64,000 nt of DNA from Scyliorhinus canicula (taxonomy: Eukaryota), in the NCBI RefSeq assembly GCF_902713615.1, contig NC_052147.1:166946410-167010409 (forward strand). Reading direction: 5' to 3'. The translations under genes and the position numbers were made by a program. Of the stretch, positions 25,341 to 61,455 are shown piece by piece; the stretch's first letter is position 1; each line of letters begins with the position of its first letter. The notes below the pieces were generated by a model that saw nothing but the letters and a program-made list of their open reading frames with translations, was not told the origin of the DNA and searched no databases.

Positions 25341-26800
25341 CATCCAAGGATTCTATGGGAAGCAAGAGATGAAATTGCAGAGCCGTTGGCAATGATCTTT
25401 TCGTCCTCACTGTCAACAGGGGTGGTACCAGAGGATTGGAGAGTGCCGAATGTCGTGCCCCTGTTCAAAAAAGTGAATAGGGATAACCCTGGGAATTACA
25501 GGCCAGTTAGTCTTACTTCGGTGGTAGGCAAAGTAATGGAACGGGTACTGAGGGATAGGATTTCTAAGCATCTGGAAAGACACTGCTTGATTAGGGATAG
25601 TCAGCACGGATTTGTGAGGGGTAAGTCTTGCCTCACAAGTCATATTGAATTCTTTGAGGAGGTGACCAAGCACGTGGATGAAGGTAAAGCAGTGGATGTG
25701 GTGTACATGGATTTTAGTAAAGCATTTGATAAGGTTCCCCATGGTAGGCTTATGCAGAAAGTAAGGAGGCATGGGATAGTGGGAAATTTGGCCAGTTGGA
25801 TATTGAACTGGCTAACCGATAGACGTCAGAGAGTGGTGGTGGATGGCAAATATTCAGCCTGGAGCCCAGTTACCAGTGGTGTACCGCAGGGATCAGTTCT
25901 GGGTCCTCTGCTGTTTGTGATTTTCATTAATGACTTGGATGAGGGAGTTGAAGGGTGGGTCAGTAAATTTTCAGACGATACGGAGATTAGTGGAGTTGTG
26001 GATAGTGAGGAGGGCTGTTGTCAGCTGCAAAGAGACATAGATAGGATGCAGAGCTGGGCTGAGAAATGGCAGATGGAGTTTAACCCTGAAAAGTGTGAGT
26101 TTGTCCATTTTGGAAGTACAAATATGATTGCGGAATACAGGGTTAACGGTAGGGTTCTTGGCAATGTGAAGGAGCAGAGAGATCTTGGGGTCTATGTTCA
26201 TAGATCTTTGAGAGCTGCCACTCAAGTGGATAGAGCTGAGAAGAAGGCCTATGGTGTGCTCGCGTTCATTAGCAGAGGGATTGAATTTAAGAGCCGTGAG
26301 GTGATGATGCAGCTGTACAAAACCTTGGAAAGGCCACATTTGGAGTACTGTGTGCAGTTCTGGTTGCCTCATTTTCGGAAGGATGTGAAAGCTTTGGAAA
26401 ATGTGCAAAAGAGATTTACCAGGATGTTGCCTGGAATGGAGAGTAGGTCTTACGAGGAAAGGTTGAGGGTGCTAGGCCTTTTGTCATTAGAACGGAGAAG
26501 GATGAGGGGTGACTTGATAGAGGTTTATAAGATGATCTAGGGAATAAATAGATTAGACAGTCAGAGACGTTTTCCCCAGATGGAACAAACCATTACAAGG
26601 GGATATAAATTTAATGGGAATGGTAGAAGATATAGGGTGGATGTCAGAGTTAGGTTCTTTACCCAGAGAGTAGTGGGGGCATGGAATGCACTGCCTGTGG
26701 AAGTAGTTGAGTCAGAAACATTAGGGACCTTCAAGCGGCTATTGGATAGCTACATGGATTAAGGTAGAATGATGGGGTGTAGATTAATTTGTTCTTAATG
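25341..26800 (+). mobile_element. 5'-truncated CR1-like LINE (reverse transcriptase region)
   Basis: ORF 25251-26540 carries NYRPVSLTS, YMDFSKAFDKV, GVPQGSVLGP and FSDD; premature stop at 26538; closely related to ORF2 at 47505-50414. Confidence 0.92.
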
Positions 26801-31085: not shown

Positions 31086-32745
31086 AACATAAGAACATAA
31101 GAACTAGGAGCAGGAGTAGGTCATCTTGCCTCTCGAGCCTGCTCTGCCATTTAATGAGATCATGGCTGATCTTTTGTGGACTCAGCTCCACTTTCTGGCC
31201 CGAACACCATAACCCTTAATCCCTTTATTCTTCAAAAAACTATCTATCTCTATCTTAAAATCATTTCATGAAGGAACCTCAACTGCTTCACTGGGCAAGG
31301 AATTCCATAGATTCACAACCCTTTGGGTCAAGAAGTTCCTCCTAAACTCAGTCCTAAATCTACTTCCCCTTATTTTGAGGCTATGCCTCCCAGTTCTGCT
31401 TCCACCCGCCAGTGGAAACAATCTGCCCGCATCTATCCTATCTATTCCCTTCATAATGTTATATGTTTCTATAAGATTCCCCCTCATCATTCTAAATTCT
31501 AATGAGTACAGTCCCAGTCTCCTCAATATCTCCTCGTAATCCAACCCCTTCCGCTCTGGGATTAACCTAGTGAATCTCCTCTGCACACCCTCCAGTGCTG
31601 GTACGTCCTTTCTCAGGTAAAGAGACCAAAACTGAACACAATACTCCAGGTGTGGCCTCACTAAAACCTTATACAATTGCAGTATAACCTCCCTCGTCTT
31701 AAACTCCATCCCTCTAGCAATGAAGGACAAAATTCCATTCGCTTTCTTAATCGCCTGTTGCACCTGTAAACCAACTTTTTGCGACTCATGCACTAGCACA
31801 CCCAGGTCTCTCCGCACAGCAGCATGTTTTAATATTTTATCATTTAAATAATAATCCCTTTTGCTGTTATTCCTACCAAAATGGATAACCTCACATTTAT
31901 CAACATTGTATTCCATCTGCCAGACCCTAGCCCATTCACTTAACCTATCCAAATCCCTCTGCAGACTTCCGGTTTCCTTTCCACTCTTTGCTTTACCGCT
32001 CACCTTAGTGTCGTCTGTAAATTTTGACACATTGCCCTTGGTCCCCAACTCCAAATCATCTATATAAATTATGAACAATTGTGGGCCCAACACTGATCCC
32101 TGAGGGACACCACTCGCTCCTGATTGCCAACCAGAGAAACACCCATTAATCCCTACTCTTTGCTTTCTATTAATTAACCAATCCTCTATCCATGCTACTA
32201 CTTTACCCTTAATGCCATGCATCTTTATCTTATGCAGCAACCTTTCGTGTGGCACCTTGTCAAAGGCTTTCTGGAAATCCAGATATACCACATCCATTGG
32301 CTCCATTATCTACCGCACTGGTAATGTCCTCAAAAAATTCCACTAAATTAGTTAGGCACGACCTGCCCTTTATGAACCCATGCTGCATCTACCCTATGGG
32401 ACAATTTCCATCCAGATGCCTCGCTATTTTTTCCTTGATGATAGATTCCAGCATCTTCTCTACTAGCGAAGTTAAGCTAACTGGCTTATAATTACCTGCT
32501 TTCTGCCTCCCTCCTTTTTTAAACAGTGGTGTCACGTTAGCTAATTTCCAATCCGCCGGGACCACCCCATAGTCTAGTGAATTTTGATAAATTATCACTA
32601 GTGCATTTGCAATTTCCCTAGCCATCTCTTTTAGCACTCTGGGATGCATTCCATCAGGGCCAGGAGACCTGTCTACCTTTGGCCCCATCACTACCTCCTT
32701 AGTGATAACAATCATCTCAAGGTCCTCACCTGTCTTAGACTCATT
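31086..32745 (-). mobile_element. 5'-truncated CR1-like LINE (RT region), nested in an older + strand LINE
   Basis: ORFs 31266-32306 and 32389-32811 carry RT motifs (YLDFQKAFDKV, GVPQGSVLGP, FTDD); (TTCTTATG)n tail; near-identical to 60757-61455. Confidence 0.92.
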
Positions 32746-44700: not shown

Positions 44701-46602
44701 TCGTGTTGCATCTTATCAAGTGTTAGAGGTCTGTCTCTCGCTACACTGCATCAAGTGCAGTCCACAACGACCCAGCCTGCCCAACACATCATGGTACCAG
44801 TGAGTGATGCTGAAATTTGATGGACCTACCTTGGGTGAATCAGCGTTGACCAGCAAACAGCCATCTGGTGACATGGAAAACGTCCGCCCAGCTCCGCAGC
44901 TCAGCATCGCCGGCAACCTCAGTGCAAATTGGAAGATCTTCAAACAGAACTTCCAACTCTATCTCGAAGCCACCGACCTCGAGGCCGCATCGCACGCCAG
45001 GAAGATCGCACTATTCCTCTCCACAACCAGGGACCATGCCATCCACATCTACAACTCCGTTACATTCGCTGAAGGCAAAGACAAGACAAAATTTAAAACT
45101 GTCCTGCTGAAGTTCGACAGCCATTGCGACATTGAGGTGAATGAGAGCTTTGAACGGTACATTTTCCAGCAGAGGCTTCAGGGTAAGGATGAACCTTTTC
45201 AGCCCTTTTTGACCCATCTCCACATCCTCGCGCAGTCATGAAACTATCACTCGACAACTGATTCCATGATCCGGGATCAGATTGTTTTCGGTGTCCACTC
45301 CGATTCCCTTTGCCAGCACCTCCTGAAAGTCAAGCAGCTCACCATCGCCATCGAAACGTGCCTTGTCCACGAACATGCTAACGATCACATCAGGGTGGCA
45401 GAAACTGCAAAGCTAGCCTCCCATGAGGCGGAACGGGTGCAGGCTATCGCACAAATGCAGGGCCTAAGTATCGACGAGAGTGGTCACTTTGCTCGCTTTT
45501 CCCGGGCCCATGCGCATGCGCGCCATTACCGAGGGGACGGCGAGACAGACGACCAGACTGCGCAGATGCTTACGTCATTTGACCGCACTGCGCATGCGCG
45601 ATGGCACACAGAACGCAGTGACGTTGGCATCATGACGTGTACGAATTGTGGCTCCGCCCATTTAAAGCAGCAATGTCCGGCAAAATCATGATGGTGTCTA
45701 CAGTGTGGCAAGCTTGGCCACTACGCAGCCCTTTGCAGACCTGCTCCACTGCCCAGCAGCCAGCGATCCCAGCCACGGCGCAGAAGTGTCCGTTCAATAC
45801 AGCAGGGCATTCCAGATTCCGACCCTGACAGCCCAACAGATCCCAATGCTGAGTGCCTCAAATCCCCATACCGGGTGGGCATAATTACGAAGCATGCGCT
45901 GCCTTTCTCCAAGATAGTGAAGCACCTTCCGATCCTCAGCGTGGATCCCGACGACGAGTGGTGTGCTGTCCTCACAGTTAACAAGGCTCGCATCCGGTTC
46001 AAACTGGACACTGGCGCATTGGCGAACCTCATCTCGAAATCCGATCTCGACACCATTCACGTCAGACCAAGTATTCTTCCACTGGCCTGTCAGCTCCTTG
46101 ACTACAATGGCAATGCCATAGCTGCCAGTAGCTTGTGCCAACTCGGAGTGTCCAATAAGTCAATTAAAGCGACTCTGCGGTTTGAGATTCTAGGACATGG
46201 CAGAGCTTCCCTGCTCGGTGCTCAGGCCTCCAAACTCCTGAACCTGGTTCAGGGAGTCCACACCATGTCACCCTCACAGGCGATGGCCTCACTTGATGAA
46301 AACTTCCAGGCTCAAATTGATGACATCATAGCGTAATACCATAGCGTGTTCGATGGAATGGGCACGCTCCCATACCGATACAAAATCCTGCTCAAACTTC
46401 GTGAGTGTTTCCCACCCTACCTCCTCCTCTAACCAACCCCCCCACCCCACGGTGGTTGGGAAGCGGGAGCAGGGGCCTGTCGTGAAGGTGAGTGAGTGCC
46501 TTTAAATTTGCTTACCTTTCAGCGGGAGCAGGGTTTGAGGTAATATCAGGTAAGCTCTTCCTTTCTTTTTCTTTTTCTTGTTTTTTTTTAAATCTAGAGG
46601 TG

Positions 46603-47529
46603 ATGTCAGGGAAGGCAGTACAATGCTCCTCCTACAGAATGTTTGAGGTGAGGGACGCCGTCAGTGTCCCTGCTGATTTCATCTGTGGGAAGTGCACCCA
46701 ACTCCAGCTCCTCAAAAACCGTGTTGGGGACCTGGAGCTTGAGCTGGATGAACTTCGGATCATTCGGGAGGCAGAGGGGGTCATAGATAGGAGCTTCAGG
46801 GAAGTAGTTACACCAAAGACTGGAGATAGATGGGTAACTGTAAGAGGGACTGGGAAGAAGCAGTCAGTGCAGGGACCCCCTGCGGTCGTTCCCCTGAGTA
46901 ACAAGTATACCGTTTTGGATACTTGTGGGGGGGACGACTTACCAGGGGTAAGCCATGGGGTACGGGCCTCTGGCACGGAGTCTGTCCCTGTTGCTCAGAA
47001 GGGAAGGGGGGAAAGGAGTAGAACATTAGTAATTGGGGACTCAATAGTCAGGGGCACAGATAGGAGATTTTGTGGGAGCGAGAGAGACTCACGTTTGGTA
47101 TGTTGCCTCCCAGGTGCAAGGGTACGTGATGTCTCGGATCGTGTTTTCCGGGTCCTTAAGGGGGAGGGGGAGCAGCCCCAAGTCGTAGTCCACGTTGGCA
47201 CTAACGACATAGGTAGGAAAGGGGACAAGGATGTCAGGCAGGCCTTTAGGGAGCTAGGATGGAAGCTCAGAGCGAGAACAAACAGAGTTGTTATCTCTGG
47301 GTTGTTGCCCGTGCCACGTGATAGTGAGATGAGGAATAGGGAGAGAGAGCAATTAAACACGTGGCTACAGGGATGGTGCAGGCGGGAGGGATTCAGATTT
47401 CTGGATAACTGGGGCTCTTTCTGGGGAAGGTGGGACCTCTATAGACAGGATGGTCTACATCTGAACCTGAGGGGCACCAATATCCTGGGGGGGAGATTTG
47501 TTAGTGCTCTTTGGGGGGGTTTAAACTAA
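46603..47529 (+). CDS. CR1 ORF1p: zinc finger / leucine zipper plus SGNH (GDSL-like) esterase, 308 aa
   Basis: First ATG at 46603; CSSY..CGKC, coiled-coil LQLLKNRVGDLELEL, GDSIVR, HVGTND, DGLHL. Confidence 0.9.
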   Translation: MSGKAVQCSSYRMFEVRDAVSVPADFICGKCTQLQLLKNRVGDLELELDELRIIREAEGVIDRSFREVVTPKTGDRWVTVRGTGKKQSVQGPPAVVPLSNKYTVLDTCGGDDLPGVSHGVRASGTESVPVAQKGRGERSRTLVIGDSIVRGTDRRFCGSERDSRLVCCLPGARVRDVSDRVFRVLKGEGEQPQVVVHVGTNDIGRKGDKDVRQAFRELGWKLRARTNRVVISGLLPVPRDSEMRNREREQLNTWLQGWCRREGFRFLDNWGSFWGRWDLYRQDGLHLNLRGTNILGGRFVSALWGGLN

Positions 47530-50414
47530 TTCAGCAGGGGCATGGGAACCTGGATTGTAGTTTTGGGGTACGGGAGATTGAGAGTATAGAGGTCAGGAGC
47601 ACAGATTTGACTTCGCAGGAGGGTGCCAGTGTTCAGGTAGGTGGTTTGAAGTGTGTCTACTTCAATGCCAGGAGTATACGAAATAAGGTAGGGGAACTGG
47701 CAGCATGGGTTGGTACCTGGGACTTCGATGTTGTGGCCATTTCAGAGACATGGATAGAGCAGGGACAGGAATGGTTGTTGCAGGTTCCGGGGTTTAGGTG
47801 TTTTAGTAAGCTCAGAGAAGGGGGCAAAAGAGGGGGAGGTGTGGCGCTGCTAGTCAAGGACAGTATTACGGTGGCGGAAAGGATGCTAGATGGGGACTCT
47901 TCTTCTGAGGTAGTATGGGCTGAGGTTAGAAACAGGAAAGGAGAGGTCACCCTGTTGGGAGTTTTCTATAGGCCACCTAATAGTTCTAGGGATGTAGAGG
48001 AAAGGATGGCGAAGATGATTCTGGAAAAGAGCGAAAGTAACAGGGTAGTTGTTATGGGAGACTTTAACTTTCCAAATATTGACTGGAAAAGATATAGTTC
48101 GAGTACATTAGATGGGTCATTCTTTGTACAATGTGTGCAGGAGGGTTTCCTGACACAATATGTTGACAGGCCAACAAGAGGCGAGGCCACATTGGATTTG
48201 GTTTTGGGTAATGAACCAGGCCAGGTGTTAGATCTGGAGGTAGGTGAGCACTTTGGAAACAGTGACCACAATTCGGTGACCTTTACGTTAGTGATGGAAA
48301 GGGATAAGTATACCCCGCAGGGCAAGAGTTATAGCTGGGGGAAGGGCAATTATGATGCCATTAGACATGACTTAGGATGTGTTGGTTGGAGAAGTAGGCT
48401 GCAAGGGTTGGGCACACTGGATATGTGGAGCTTGTTCAAGGAACAGCTATTGCATGTTCTTGATAAGTACGTACCAGTCAGGCAGGGAGGAAGGGGTCGA
48501 GCGAGGGAACCGTGGTTTACCAAAGAAGTGGAATCTCTTGTTAAGAGGAAGAAGGAGGCCTATGTGAAGATGAGGCGTGAAGTTTCAGTTGGGGCGCTTG
48601 ATAGTTACAAGGAAGCGAGGAAGGATCTAAAGAGAGAGCTGAGACGAGCAAGGAGGGGACATGAGAAGTCTTTGGCAGGTAGGATCAAGGAAAACCCAAA
48701 AGCTTTCTATAGGTATGTCAGGAATAAAAGAATGACTAGGGTAAGAGTAGGGCCAGTCAAGGACAGTGGTGGGAAGTTGTGTGTGGAGGCTGAGGAGATA
48801 AGCGAGATACTAAATGAATACTTTTCGTCAGTATTCACTCAAGAAAAGGATAATATTGTGCAGGAGAATGCTGAGACCCAGGCTATTAGAATAGATGGCA
48901 TTGAGGTGTGTAGGGAAGAAGTGTTGGCAATTCTGGACAAGGTGAAAATAGATAAGTCCCCGGGGCCGGATGGGATTTATCCTAGGATTCTCTGTGAAGC
49001 CAGGGAAGAGATTGCTGAGCCTTTGGCTTTGATTTTTAGGTCATCATTGGCTACAGGAATAGTGCCAGAGGACTGGAGGATAGCAAATGTGGTCCCTTTG
49101 TTCAAGAAGGGGAGTAGAGATAACCCCGGTAACTATAGGCCGGTGAGCCTAACGTCTGTGGTGGGTAAAGTCTTGGAGAGGATTATAAAAGATACGATTT
49201 ATAATCATCTAGATAGGAATAATATGATTAGGGACAGTCAGCATGGTTTTGTGAAGGGTAGGTCATGCCTCACAAACCTTATCGAGTTCTTTGAGAAGGT
49301 GACTGAACAGGTAGATGAGGGTAGAGCAGTTGATGTGGTGTATATGGATTTCAGTAAAGCGTTTGATAAGGTTCCCCACGGTCGGCTATTGCAGAAAATA
49401 CGGAGGCTGGGGATTGAGGGTGATTTAGAGATGTGGATCAGAAATTGGCTAGTTGAAAGAAGACAGAGAGTGGTAGTTGATGGGAAATGTTCAGAATGGA
49501 GTTCAGTTACGAGTGGCGTACCACAAGGATCTGTTCTGGGGCCGTTGCTGTTTGTCATTTTTATAAATGACCTAGAGGAGGGCGCAGAAGGATGGGTGAG
49601 TAAATTTGCAGACGACACTAAAGTCGGTGGAGTTGTAGACAGTGCGGAAGGATGTTGCAGGTTACAGAGGGACATAGATAAGCTGCAGAGCTGGGCTGAG
49701 AGGTGGCAAATGGAGTTTAATGTGGAGAAGTGTGAGGTGATTCACTTTGGAAAGAATAACAGAAATGCGGAACATTTGGCTAATGGTAAAATTCTTGGTA
49801 GTGTGGATGAGCAGAGGGATCTCGGTGTCCATGTACATAGATCCCTGAAAGTTGCCACCCAGGTTGATAGGGTTGTGAAGAAGGCCTATGGTGTGTTGGC
49901 CTTTATTGGTAGAGGGATTGAGTTCCGGAGCCATGAGGTCATGTTGCAGTTGTACAAAATTCTAGTACGCCCGCATTTGGAGTATTGCGTACAGTTCTGG
50001 TCGCCTCATTATAGGAAGGACGTGGAAGCTTTGGAACGGGTGCAGAGGAGATTTACCAGGATGTTGCCTGGTATGGAGGGAAAATCTTATGAGGAAAGGC
50101 TGATGGACTTGAGGTTGTTTTCATTAGAGAGAAGAAGGTTAAGAGGTGACTTAATAGAGGCATACAAAATGATCAGAAGGTTAGATAGGGTGGACAGCGA
50201 GAGCCTTCTCCCGCGGATGGAGGTGGCTAGCACGAGGGGACATAGCCTTAAATTGAGGGGTAATAGATATAGGACAGAGGTCAGAGGTAGGTTTTTTACG
50301 CAAAGAGTGGTGAGGCCGTGGAATGCCCTACCTGCAACAGTAGTGAACTCGCCAACATTGAGGGCATTTAAAAGTTTATTGGATAAGCATATGGATGATA
50401 AGGGCATAGTGTAG
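47505..50414 (+). CDS. CR1 ORF2p: AP endonuclease plus reverse transcriptase (start undefined; frame open from 47505)
   Basis: FNARS, ISETW, FYRPP, MGDFN, LDLVL, SDH (APE); QGSVLGP and FADD (RT); no stops over 967 codons. Confidence 0.95.
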   Translation, partial: CSLGGFKLIQQGHGNLDCSFGVREIESIEVRSTDLTSQEGASVQVGGLKCVYFNARSIRNKVGELAAWVGTWDFDVVAISETWIEQGQEWLLQVPGFRCFSKLREGGKRGGGVALLVKDSITVAERMLDGDSSSEVVWAEVRNRKGEVTLLGVFYRPPNSSRDVEERMAKMILEKSESNRVVVMGDFNFPNIDWKRYSSSTLDGSFFVQCVQEGFLTQYVDRPTRGEATLDLVLGNEPGQVLDLEVGEHFGNSDHNSVTFTLVMERDKYTPQGKSYSWGKGNYDAIRHDLGCVGWRSRLQGLGTLDMWSLFKEQLLHVLDKYVPVRQGGRGRAREPWFTKEVESLVKRKKEAYVKMRREVSVGALDSYKEARKDLKRELRRARRGHEKSLAGRIKENPKAFYRYVRNKRMTRVRVGPVKDSGGKLCVEAEEISEILNEYFSSVFTQEKDNIVQENAETQAIRIDGIEVCREEVLAILDKVKIDKSPGPDGIYPRILCEAREEIAEPLALIFRSSLATGIVPEDWRIANVVPLFKKGSRDNPGNYRPVSLTSVVGKVLERIIKDTIYNHLDRNNMIRDSQHGFVKGRSCLTNLIEFFEKVTEQVDEGRAVDVVYMDFSKAFDKVPHGRLLQKIRRLGIEGDLEMWIRNWLVERRQRVVVDGKCSEWSSVTSGVPQGSVLGPLLFVIFINDLEEGAEGWVSKFADDTKVGGVVDSAEGCCRLQRDIDKLQSWAERWQMEFNVEKCEVIHFGKNNRNAEHLANGKILGSVDEQRDLGVHVHRSLKVATQVDRVVKKAYGVLAFIGRGIEFRSHEVMLQLYKILVRPHLEYCVQFWSPHYRKDVEALERVQRRFTRMLPGMEGKSYEERLMDLRLFSLERRRLRGDLIEAYKMIRRLDRVDSESLLPRMEVASTRGHSLKLRGNRYRTEVRGRFFTQRVVRPWNALPATVVNSPTLRAFKSLLDKHMDDKGIV

Positions 50415-51249
50415 GTTAGATGGCCTTTAGATTTTTTCCATGTCGGTGCAACATCGAGGGCCGAAGGGCCTGTACTGCGCTGTATCGTTCTATGTTCTAT
50501 GTTCTAAACCGAACGCCACCCCTGTAATTCACGCACCACGTCGGGTGCCAGCACCCCTCAAGGATCACCTCAAGCAGCAATTACAGGACCTCCAGGACCA
50601 GGGCATCATATCAAAGGCCACACATCCCACGGACTGGGTCACCTCCAGGGCCTGCGTCAAGAAGCCGTCAGGGGAGCTTCGGATCTGCATCGACCCCAAG
50701 GATCTAAACCGCAACATCACGCGGGAGCATTACCCAATACCTAAACGAGAAGAGTTGACCAGCGAGTTGGCTCATGCCAAATTCTTTACGAAGCTGGATG
50801 CCTCCAAGGGGTTCTGGCAAATACAGCTGGATGCATCCAGTCGCAAGCTGTGCACATTCAATACCCTGTTCGGTCGCTACTGCTACAACCGGATGCATTT
50901 TGGCATCATCTCTGCCTCAGAGGTATTTCACCGCATCATGGAACAGATGATGGATGGTATCGAGGGGGTGCGAGTGTATGTTGACGATGTCATAATATGG
51001 TCCACAACTCCCCATAACATATCGCTCGCCTCAAGGAGTATTCCACAGAATACATGAGCATGGGCTCCAGCTCAACAGGGCCAAGTGCTCGTTCGGTCAA
51101 TCAGATATCAAATTCCTTGGTTACCACATCTCGCAGCAAGGCGTGCGGTCAGATACTGACAAGGTTTCGGCGATCAACGCCATGAAGACCCCAGAGGACA
51201 AGAAGGTGGTCCTCCGCTTTCTAGGGATGGTCAACTTCCTCGGGAAGTT

Positions 51250-51595
51250 ATAGAATTTACCGTGCAGAAGGAGGCCATTCGGCCCATCGAATCTGCACCG
51301 GCTCTTGGAAAGAGCACCCTACCCGAGGTCAACACCTCCACCCTATCCCCATAACCCAACAACCCCACCCAACACTAAGGGCAATTTTGGACACTAACGG
51401 CAATTTATCATGGCCAATCCACCTAACCTGCACACATCTTTGGACTGTGGGAGGAAACCGGAGCACCCGGAGGAAACCCACGCACACACGGGGAGGATGT
51501 GCATACTGCGCACAGACAGTGACCCAAGCCGGAATCGAACCTGGGACCCTGGAGCTGTGAAGCAATTGTGCTATCCACAATGCTACCGTGCTGCC
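51250..51595 (-). mobile_element. HE1-like V-SINE inserted in the Gypsy pol
   Basis: Splits FLGK|FIPNMASHTT. Confidence 0.9.
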
Positions 51596-54344
51596 ATTCC
51601 CATGTTCATTCCCAACATGGCGTCCCACACCACAGCCCTCCGCCATCTCGTCAAAAAGTCAACGGAATTCCAGTGGCCGCCCGCTCATGAAAAAGAATGG
51701 CGTGAGCTGAGGGCAAAGCTCACCACAGCCCCGGTTTTGGCGTTCTTTGACCCCCACCAAGGAGACCAAGACATCCACTGATGTGAGCCAGTACGGTATT
51801 GGGGCGGTGCGCCTCCAACGGGATGACTCCTCGTCCTGGGCTCCAGTTGCGTGTCCCTCCAGAGCCATGACGCCCACTGAGCAACGGTACGCTCAGATTG
51901 AGAAGGAATGCCTGGGCCTCATAACGGGAATTGACAAGTTTCACGACTATGTTTATGGCCTCCCAAAATTCACGGTAGAGGCGGACCACAGGCCACTAGT
52001 CCACATTATCCAGAAGGATTTAAATGACATGACGCCTCGGTTACAGCGAATCCTTCTCAAGCTACGCCGCTGTGATTTTGAGCTTGTCTACACGCCAGGC
52101 AGAGAACTCATTGTTGCAGATGCCCTTTCCAGGTCTATTACCACTCCCTGTGAACAAACGGACTTCGTCTGCCAAATCGCGCGCAGGTACAATTGTGTGC
52201 CTCTAACCTTCCGGCCTCTGATGAGAGGGTCGTCCAAATTCATGAGGAAATGGCCAAGGATCCTCTGCTACAGCGAGTGATGCAGCACCTTACCAATGGC
52301 TGGCAGAAGGGACAATGTCCCCAGTTCTACAACGTCAAGGATGACCTGACGGAGGTGGACAGCATCCTCATGAAGCTCAACGGGATCGTAATCCCGCAGA
52401 GCATGCGAGCTATGGTGCTCGGCCAACTCCATGAGGGTCACCTGGGGGTCAAGAAATGCCGATGCAGAGTTTGGGAGGCAGTCTATTGGCCGGGCATCAG
52501 CCAGGACGTTGCCAACACAGTCCTCAACTGCCCTACATGTCAGAAATTTCAGCCAGCTCAACCCAAAGAAACTTTGCAGCAACATGAGATAGTGACCTCC
52601 CCGTGGTCCAAAGTCGGTGTTGACCTTTTCCACGCCAAGGGGCGTGACTATGTCCTCCTGGTTGACTACTTCTCCAGTTACCCAGAAGTGGTGAAACTGC
52701 CCGACCTCATGTCGAAGGCAGTGATTAAAACCTGCAAAGAAAAATTCGCCAGGCATGGGATACTGCTCACGGTGATGAGTGATAATGGGCCCTGTTTTTA
52801 CAGCCAGGAATGGTCTGATTTTGCACGTTTATACAACTTCCGTCACGTGACCTCCAGCCCTCACTACCCGCAGTCAAACGGGAAGGCTGAAAAAGGGGTC
52901 CATATCGTCAGGAGATTGCTATGCAAGGCTGCAGACTCAGGCTCCAACTTCAACCTGGCAATGCTGGCATACAGGGCAACCCTGCTGTCCACTGGGTTGT
53001 CTCCAGCGCAGATGCTCATGAATCCCACTCTGCCATGGTTCCAGCCATCCATGTTCCAGACCTTGACCACCTCACGGTCATACAAAAGATGCAGCAGTCT
53101 CGGGCCCAACAGAAATCAGCATACGACGCTCATGCCACAGAGCTCCCCAAGCTGCTCCCAACTGATTATGTTCGTGTACAGTTGCCTGATGGCGGCTGAT
53201 CAGTCACAGCTGTGGTTGTCAAGCAAGTGGCCCCAAGATCGTTCCTTGTTCGCATGGCTGATGGCTCCTTCCTACTACGCAACAGAAGGGCACTGCGCAG
53301 AGTTCCACGTCCGCCACCTGACCGTGATGCCCCGCCACACACGATGCTTCCTCCAGATGTGCCCTACCACGAGGCCACCGATCTACCAGCAATCCTGCCG
53401 ACCCCTGCGACCACCGCATTGGCGGCGGTCCTGCCTATCCAAATGCAGGCGGCCCCTGATCCACCCTTGCGGCGATCAACCAGAATTCGCCGCCCGCCAC
53501 AAAGACTAAATTTATAGACTGAACTTTTGCACAATTTTGTTACATCATCGTTTTGACCTCTGTAAATATCGTTTCACCATTTCGTCTGCCCTATATCTGC
53601 ACTAGCGACACCTTCCTATGTATATACGTTCATTTTAGCACATTCTGTATATAGTCACATACATATACACATCCACACGCACACGCCCCTTAATATTTAT
53701 TATCTAAAAAAAAGGGGGGGAGATGTCATAACATACATCTATGTATATAATGGAGTGCAGACAGGCAGTGATTGACACACAGGATGACCAGTAAGCACAG
53801 AGAACAGAGCAGCCAATCACCAGACAGGACACTACCACTATAAAGCCAGAGGGCACTAGGTTTCCCGCTCTCTCTGGACCCAGCCACTGAGACAGTTAGA
53901 GTTCGTGAGCTAGTCAGTGCAAACACCATGCGTAGCTCGTAAGTCTGGTCAGGCTAGTACTAGGTCTCCAGTCAAGTCAGCATAGTGTCAACCCACAGTT
54001 GAACATGTGCAGTAGTTAAGACGTTAAATAAAATCGTGTTGCATCTTATCAAGTGTTGGAAGTCTGTCTCTCGCTACACTGCATCAAGTGGACCCAGCCT
54101 GCCCAACACATCACACGCAGGGCAATGCCCACTGTAATCCCGACAGGGGCACCGGACAGGTGCTGTGGAGTGTACCCCTGGCAAGGGCAATGCCAGCTGA
54201 TAATACAACTGATAGCAGGAACAGGCACCTGGACCAGAGCCACCATGGTGCTGGGCCATGGGTGCGGGGATGGAGGGGGTAAAACATGTGGGGGCAGAGC
54301 CCGCAGTGCCAACTGAGGCTGTTATGTAACCCGGTGGACCTGTT

Positions 54345-60756: not shown

Positions 60757-61455
60757 GCAAAAAAGTTGGTTTATAGGTGCAGCAGGTGATTAAGAAGGCA
60801 AATGGAATTTTGTCCTTCATTGCTAGAGGGATGGAGTTTAAGACTAGGGAGGTTATGCTGCAATTGTATAAGGTGTTAGTGAGGCCACACCTGGAGTATT
60901 GTGTTCAGTTTTGGTCTCCTTACCTGAGAAAGGGTGTACTGGCACGGGAGGATGTGCAGAGGAGATTCACTAGGTTAATCCCAGAGCTGAAGGGGTTGGA
61001 TTACGAGGAGAGGTTGAGTAGACTGGGACTGTACTTGTTGGAATTTAGAATGATGAGGGGGGACCTTATAGAAACATATAAAATTATGAAGGGAATAGAT
61101 AGGATAGATACTGGTAGGTTGTTTCCACTGGCGGGTGAAAGCAAAACTAGGGGGCATAGCCTCAAAATAAGGGGAAGTAGATTTAGGACTGAGTTTAGGA
61201 GGAACTTCTTCACCCAAAGGGTTGTGAATCTATGGAATTCCTTGCCCAGTGAAGCAGTTGAGTCTCCTTCATTAAAAGTTTTAAAGATAAAGATAGATAG
61301 TTTTTTGAAGAATAAAGGGATTAAGGGTTATGGTGTTCAGGCCGGAAAATGGAGCTGAGTCCACAAAAGATCAGCCATGATCTCATTGAATGGTGGAGCA
61401 GGCTCGAGGGGCCATATGGCCTACTCCTGCTCCTAGTTCTTATGTTCTTATGTTC
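60757..61455 (+). mobile_element. 3' part of a CR1-like LINE
   Basis: ORF 60777-61358 is the ORF2 C-terminus; (TTCTTATG)n tail; same subfamily as 31086-32745. Confidence 0.92.

Follow-up and report, generated by a model that had tools for sequence, protein, structure and literature searches.

How is the second protein of a retrotransposon made when its reading frame holds no start codon ahead of its first domain? This question is raised by a copy of a CR1 long interspersed nuclear element (LINE) in a stretch of 64,000 nucleotides (nt) from Scyliorhinus canicula (RefSeq assembly GCF_902713615.1, contig NC_052147.1, positions 166,946,410 to 167,010,409 of the forward strand), called the window below. 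The element has two overlapping open reading frames (ORFs), ORF1 and ORF2. PMC3894237 and PMC2881922 name the translation of LINE ORF2 as an open question, and the worked cases are reinitiation. Our analysis suggests that ORF2 of this CR1 LINE is likely made by a programmed -1 ribosomal frameshift, as an ORF1-ORF2 fusion. Since a slippery heptamer at the end of ORF1 is conserved and is followed at a fixed distance by a G motif, a ribosomal slip back by one base likely joins both genes. The junction has the following parts, numbered from the first base of the window:

46603..47529, + strand: ORF1, 308 amino acids (aa) from its first AUG, the presumed start; ends Gly-Leu-Asn-stop
47505..50414, + strand: ORF2 reading frame, 969 codons from stop to stop (Pfam)
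47517..47523, + strand: overlapping heptamer G_GGU_UUA, in the same phase as the slippery heptamer; only in this and some other subfamilies
47520..47526, + strand: slippery heptamer U_UUA_AAC, the final seven ORF1 bases before the stop, X_XXY_YYZ in the ORF1 frame
47527..47529, + strand: ORF1 stop TAA, adjoining the heptamer
47526..47657, + strand: linker without AUG between slip site and endonuclease, with no stop in the -1 frame
47537..47546, + strand: conserved motif G-GGG-NNN-GGG after a 10-nt spacer from the heptamer, a candidate stimulator
47565..47574, + strand: third and fourth G-tracts (47565-68 and 47572-74), in this subfamily only

ORF1 ends at 47515-47529 with GGG GGT TTA AAC TAA. 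The ORF2 frame opens after a TAG at 47502-47504, lies in the -1 frame and overlaps ORF1 by 25 nt; its first in-frame AUG is at 47883, residue 122 counted from the heptamer. A reading of the letters alone (the sequence-only reading) had proposed a frameshift from these features, and its coordinates for the ORF1 end, heptamer, frame, overlap, AUG and G-tracts are all correct in the sequence.

Because individual copies decay neutrally, the family and not the copy is the unit of our conservation test. From 180 loci with a full junction we obtained 134 unique sequences and 37 clusters at 10% distance; two clusters lacked the junction and were dropped, leaving 35 from the same genome and from bird-type elements, 25 of them single copies. 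The last ORF1 Leu is TTA in 34 of 34 clusters, and in 22 of 22 when clustered at 20% distance; at four other conserved leucines of ORF1, TTA is used in only 3 of 118 cases. AAC encodes the final Asn in 33 of 35. Conservation is 94% at the base preceding TTA, compared with 77% and 63% at the first two bases of that codon, whose amino acid varies, and upstream third positions average 62%. The silent positions of the heptamer are also more fixed than those of the codons for the esterase motif DGLHL. The stop after the heptamer is TAA in 15 clusters, TAG in 15 and TGA in 1. Genome-wide counts, anchored on the DGLHL codons rather than on the junction, point the same way: T-TTA-AAC-TRR lies exactly 26 codons after them in ~14,200 copies, versus 174 with another first base and 27 with CTN-AAY, and reversed-pattern controls gave 0. 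The listed exceptions are dispersed over many families, as single mutations would be. Judged by its silent sites, the heptamer is conserved beyond the needs of the protein, and the conservation across families that the sequence-only reading had asked for is borne out. Its second heptamer, G_GGU_UUA, is not conserved: it is lost where ORF1 has ACT, TGT, GTT, GAT or GCT before TTA.

Downstream of the heptamer, the endonuclease motif could be scored for frame in 114 of 134 copies (not in 20); 95 of these have it in -1, as do 21 of 27 clusters and all 9 scorable multi-copy clusters. In 88 of 114 copies the linker between them has no stop in -1, compared with 4 copies for the +1 frame and 2 for the 0 frame. 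It measures 111-264 nt (37-88 codons) and is poorly conserved as protein; that it stays open in -1 despite this divergence suggests translation all the way from the junction. Of the open copies in the window's subfamily, 35 of 36 lack a Met ahead of the endonuclease, so the other sequence test posed by the sequence-only reading is passed as well. The AUG at 47883 falls behind Glu76, which aligns with E43 of the L1 endonuclease, a residue that presumably has a catalytic role, and an ORF2 started there would be without it. Taken from sequence, three hallmarks of a canonical -1 frameshift site are present: a phased heptamer, conservation beyond the protein and an ORF2 open in -1.

The second conserved element of the junction lies 10 nt past the heptamer. 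There GGGG (47537-40 in the window) is conserved at 89-97% per base and the GGG three bases on (47544-46) at 86-89%, without gaps; in one distant element the motif is shifted by 3 nt. Its glycine codons in the -1 frame use GGG throughout (16 of 16 and 15 of 15), against 30% GGG in the endonuclease, and its first G is a third codon position that is kept under six different residues (17 of 17). What is constrained is therefore the nucleic acid. The arterivirus type of signal is a short linear motif, kept as sequence and at a fixed spacing, and the G motif has these properties. Of the four G-tracts that the sequence-only reading had pointed out, the first two are thus conserved while the third and fourth are confined to this subfamily. 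The G-quadruplex that it had offered as a stimulator did not hold up, as only 1 of 20 family representatives has four G-tracts when loops are limited to 7 nt, and 4 of 20 when loose loops are allowed. No common downstream place among 17 representatives could serve as a long-range partner of the motif. Upstream, 7 of 17 best matches fall at -640 to -680, on a C-rich, proline-coding spot (a count made without a covariation test).

The junction recurs in other elements and hosts. Among 117 ORF1 homologues, 75 have a DGLH-type motif, and 52 of these 75 end in Leu-Asn (LN), most of them exactly 26 residues after the Asp of the motif. The closest named homologues are from sharks and rays, and low-identity teleost homologues mostly end in something other than Leu-Asn. 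Bird-type metagenome loci extending to the junction retain TTTAAAC, and a distant element, L092, carries G_UUA_AAC-stop followed by an ORF2 in -1. In Supplementary Table 2 of PMC13343379, TTTAAAC-stop is at the ORF1 end in 18 of the 22 matches listed (23 in total; judged by eye), in rows whose labels read as alligator, crocodile, bearded dragon, frog, coelacanth, bowfin, chimaera, rays and sharks. This search covered the first 400 characters per cell and gives presence, not frequency; in the same characters GGGAAAC, AAAAAAC or GTTAAAC plus a stop was not found at any ORF1 end. One row of that table, AldAff_Crack-2, is labelled Crack and has an esterase-like end and a TTTAAAC-TAG that no G motif follows; the label may be wrong, or the row may be a variant. 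The supplement of PMC4316615, apart from its file 1, gave four matches, all in ORF2 3' ends. No relatives turned up in viral contigs, and the prokaryote collection gave one weak match, L223.

More distant relatives were compared by their protein ends. We took the best 150 representatives at 50% identity, which are not independent and were found with a profile built from LN-ending proteins that favours LN. Among them 83 end in Asn, preceded by Leu in 65, Gly in 10, Lys in 3 and others in 5. Residues without a U-ending codon (K/Q/E/M/W) stand before Leu-Asn in 1 of 65 cases, compared with 18% across the five positions just upstream, and Gln precedes Gly-Asn in 9 of 10. Read back from protein ends rather than DNA, the LN, Gly-Asn (GN) and Lys-Asn (KN) endings fit the heptamers U_UUA_AAC, G_GGA_AAC and A_AAA_AAC, which are three of the four shiftiest according to PMC5009743. 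The only named weak match of the Gly-Asn group is a crab protein. Further ORF1 ends, namely FFH, FFR, GFC and an internal KN in proteins P0178, P0221, P0224, P0208, P0214 and P0259, might hide U-rich or A-rich slip sites.

Under the frameshift that we propose, a minority of ribosomes would slip on U_UUA_AAC, the Leu and Asn transfer RNAs (tRNAs) moving in tandem by one base, while most would stop and release the ORF1 protein. The slip product would be a fusion of 308 + 962 residues (~1,270 aa), and a low ORF2:ORF1 ratio would be the purpose of the slip. The pause would come from the G motif and the adjacent stop, not from a hairpin or pseudoknot, with the motif recognised as sequence, probably through a protein bound to it. 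A pseudoknot, or a structure formed by two RNAs, may nonetheless be involved. Pfam reported no protease domain in the ORF1 and ORF2 products, and therefore the fusion would not cleave itself.

Viral -1 frameshifting uses X_XXY_YYZ heptamers, such as U_UUA_AAC in coronaviruses and those of retroviral gag-pol. Unlike these sites, the CR1 junction has a short G motif at 10 nt in place of a conserved hairpin or pseudoknot, and unlike these systems CR1 is a non-LTR element (one without long terminal repeats) with an esterase ORF1. Arteriviruses have a linear motif ~10 nt after the slip site. The CR1 motif resembles it in spacing but is G-rich and not C-rich, and we treat the likeness as an analogy. 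According to PMC5009743, the arterivirus frameshift is stimulated in trans by nsp1beta together with a poly(C) binding protein. The Dictyostelium elements TRE5-A and TRE3-A, which are non-LTR elements of the APE type, need a -1 frameshift for ORF2 according to a statement in a review (PMC5911963); on that statement they resemble what is proposed here for CR1, and they differ in clade and host. Canonical vertebrate CR1 in PMC13343379 shares with the window copy the esterase ORF1, the ORF2 with APE endonuclease and reverse transcriptase (RT), and the junction, which is in the consensuses of many species. Frameshifting at this junction would be a known mechanism with an unusual, linear G-rich 3' signal.

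The main text of PMC13343379 mentions neither frameshift, overlap, start codon nor translation, and its supplement does not mention frameshifting. CR1 is not mentioned in the first 300,000 of 449,034 characters of PMC5009743, nor is a frameshift or overlap in the searched text of PMC2734521. No proposal of CR1 frameshifting was found in the titles and abstract openings covered, which did not include the chicken and turtle CR1 papers of 1997-2001. Those papers may already mention the overlap.

Several results weigh against the frameshift. The clusters are related by descent, and the 25 single copies among the 35 are partly decayed. The endonuclease is outside the -1 frame in 19 of 114 copies, and likewise in 6 of 27 clusters, each of them a single copy. 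Of the 95 representatives whose C-terminus lies 20-50 aa past the motif, 33 have an ending other than LN, GN or KN, and no DNA for Gly-Asn or Lys-Asn families was found, viral and prokaryote collections included. Classical -1 sites need a stem-loop or pseudoknot 5-9 nt downstream, and none was found here. The weak hairpin that the sequence-only reading had suggested finds no counterpart in the folds: the RNAalifold consensus of 17 representatives has 0 pairs, 16 of 17 folds have z above -2 and the window has z +0.79 (pseudoknots lie outside these folds), and Rfam gave no match at the junction. Of the 20 clusters with an open copy, 5 have an in-frame AUG at 3-4 codons past the start of the heptamer, four of them bird-type loci and one a cluster from the same genome. 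These take the form UAAUG (in the latter cluster) or UAG-NN-AUG, which is the layout of stop-start reinitiation. An AUG overlapping or beside the ORF1 stop, as in SART1, is thus present in these 5 of 20 clusters and absent from the window's subfamily. ORF2 of L1 and SART1 is translated by reinitiation (PMC2881922), and that of L1 independently of AUG (PMC5009743), because of which the absence of an AUG proves nothing by itself.

Termination-reinitiation is the main explanation to be set against frameshifting, and we regard it as unlikely for this element. Ribosomes would stop at ORF1 and restart on the overlapping -1 codon (AUU in this copy, AUG in some families) to make a separate ORF2, and the conserved bases would serve the restart. 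This is the known route for LINEs (PMC2881922, PMC3894237 and PMC10275272). L1 and SART1 share with CR1 a bicistronic LINE RNA and an ORF2 needed at a low level. Reinitiation accounts equally well for the open linker, fits the AUGs of the five clusters, and in some families could operate alongside frameshifting. Across 17 representatives, however, the stop is overlapped by ATT, GTT, GTA, GGT, GAC, GCT, GAG, AAG, AAA, CTG or ATG; CR1 therefore lacks a conserved start codon, while its slippery phase is conserved. Reinitiation predicts neither the U before UUA nor the LN/GN/KN pattern. Only 12 of 37 clusters have UGGGA, the calicivirus-type reinitiation motif, in the 85 nt upstream; widening this to 100 nt gives 22 of 37, where it encodes Trp-Asp.

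Three other explanations are less likely still. Nucleotide conservation does not reveal which machine reads the bases, and these could be a signal unrelated to decoding (a TATA-like TTTAAA for a subgenomic ORF2 RNA, a splice or a packaging signal), with ORF2 made from a shorter or spliced RNA. Sense read depth does climb across the junction, from 87 to 246 over 47400-47671 in one single-cell run. Yet two RNA read runs showed neither a GT..AG joint nor a pile-up of molecule starts at the junction, and two adapter-tailed ends, 47541 and 47704, are an artefact, since both lie on CATGGG, which we take to match the end of the template-switch oligo. The RNA reads carry little weight because they stem from thousands of copies, many within host transcripts. 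A shorter RNA would likewise have no in-frame AUG, and such a signal does not explain the phase; we consider it very improbable. Hardly any credence is due to a fusion that arises when the polymerase slips on the G7 run ahead of the heptamer and adds one G, or that stems from genomic copies already fused. The joined form (G8) has 283 copies, against 3,806 with G7 and 109 with G6, but most families have no G run. On a tree that kept 65 of 72 loci, the G8 copies form no lineage (18 label changes versus 20.7 when shuffled, 67 of 500 shuffles being as low), and no variant is private to three or more of 26 G8 copies; they are independent slips or assembly noise. In RNA reads no insertion is listed at this run at a depth of ~215, and the G7 run at 47487 has 5 of 167. 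A need for Leu-Asn at the esterase C-terminus or shared descent, with the heptamer incidental, is scarcely credible. Both residues are invariant in an alignment of 44 sequences (rows picked for LN ends), but relatives replace Leu by Gly or Lys, and the fixation of TTA in the cluster codon test refutes protein constraint as the sole cause.

Apart from this weighing, we observed that in ~7% of the subfamily copies (for example L177, L178 and L224-L253) an extra G fuses the two ORFs, giving frames of up to 1,307 aa. Proteins P0037, P0085 and P0165 read through the junction (esterase, FKL, linker) and derive from copies carrying such indels.

According to PMC13343379, most vertebrates have CR1 as their dominant retrotransposon group. 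If the frameshift is real, the annotation of ORF2 would change, as it would have no start codon and its product would carry ORF1; the site would guide the construction of a working CR1 retrotransposition assay, and would add a natural example of a -1 site apparently working with no folded stimulator. We also entertain a broader reading, tentatively and while leaning against it. Esterase-type CR1 from sharks to birds, and invertebrate relatives that exchanged their heptamer among U_UUA_AAC, G_GGA_AAC and A_AAA_AAC, would share an ancient -1 frameshift that needs no structure. Its switch would be a protein, either a host G-tract binder or the ORF1 protein, on G-GGG-NNN-GGG, and the uncleaved esterase-endonuclease-RT fusion, incorporated in the ORF1 particle much as Gag-Pol is in its own, would be the working enzyme in the main LINE clade of non-mammalian vertebrates.

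The remaining parts of the element are as follows:

46398..50505, + strand: CR1 copy with intact ORFs and a truncated 5' untranslated region (UTR), delimited by sequence, with loose 5' ends
46394-46397 and 50506-50509: likely target duplication of 4 base pairs, AAAC, flanking the CR1 copy (from sequence)
~47658-48269, + strand: APE endonuclease of ORF2 (Pfam Exo_endo_phos; L1 endonuclease match, E 2e-7)
~49110-49805, + strand: RT of ORF2 (Pfam RVT_1)
50487..50505, + strand: 3' tail of 7-nt tandem repeats, not poly(A) (from sequence)

ORF1 consists of a Cys-rich N-terminus and an SGNH/GDSL esterase (Pfam Lipase_GDSL_2, E 2.1e-14). With this esterase, an ORF2 of APE endonuclease and RT, and the tandem-repeat tail, the element is by its sequence a vertebrate CR1 LINE; the assignment uses its domains, its tail and the likeness of its junction to rows labelled CR1 in the PMC13343379 table. 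The sequence-only reading had called it intact, which is right for the ORFs and not for the element, since it is 5'-truncated at ~46396-46398; upstream of there, reads of other copies carry different letters. In the 4.22-gigabase genome a 17-nt ORF1 anchor has 9,093 exact matches and the exact 35-nt junction has 3,806 copies. Divergence among 65 copies over the first 1.1 kilobases of ORF2 is ~1.8%. The CR1 family here is young and abundant.

The 5' UTR (46470-46600) contains splice-like GTGAGT and GTAAG and a long pyrimidine tract ending in AG directly before the ORF1 AUG; no joint at these motifs is among the listed read joints, for which the repeat stretch was partly skipped. An antisense read peak at 46584-46920 likely reflects internal priming at a T-run. 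Three older, 5'-truncated CR1-related fragments lie elsewhere in the window, at 25342-26764 (+), 31299-32385 (-) and 60792-61241 (+). They are 65-75% identical to the RT half, and none reaches the junction.

The host of the CR1 insertion is a Gypsy-type element. Going by the ORF list only, CR1 splits the pol region of this LTR element into 44800-46397 and 50510-53500, and the interrupted frames (zinc knuckle, protease, RT and integrase-like) carry stops and frameshifts. A minus-strand short interspersed repeat with a tRNA-like end, identified by eye at 51260-51700, apparently lies within the Gypsy RT region.

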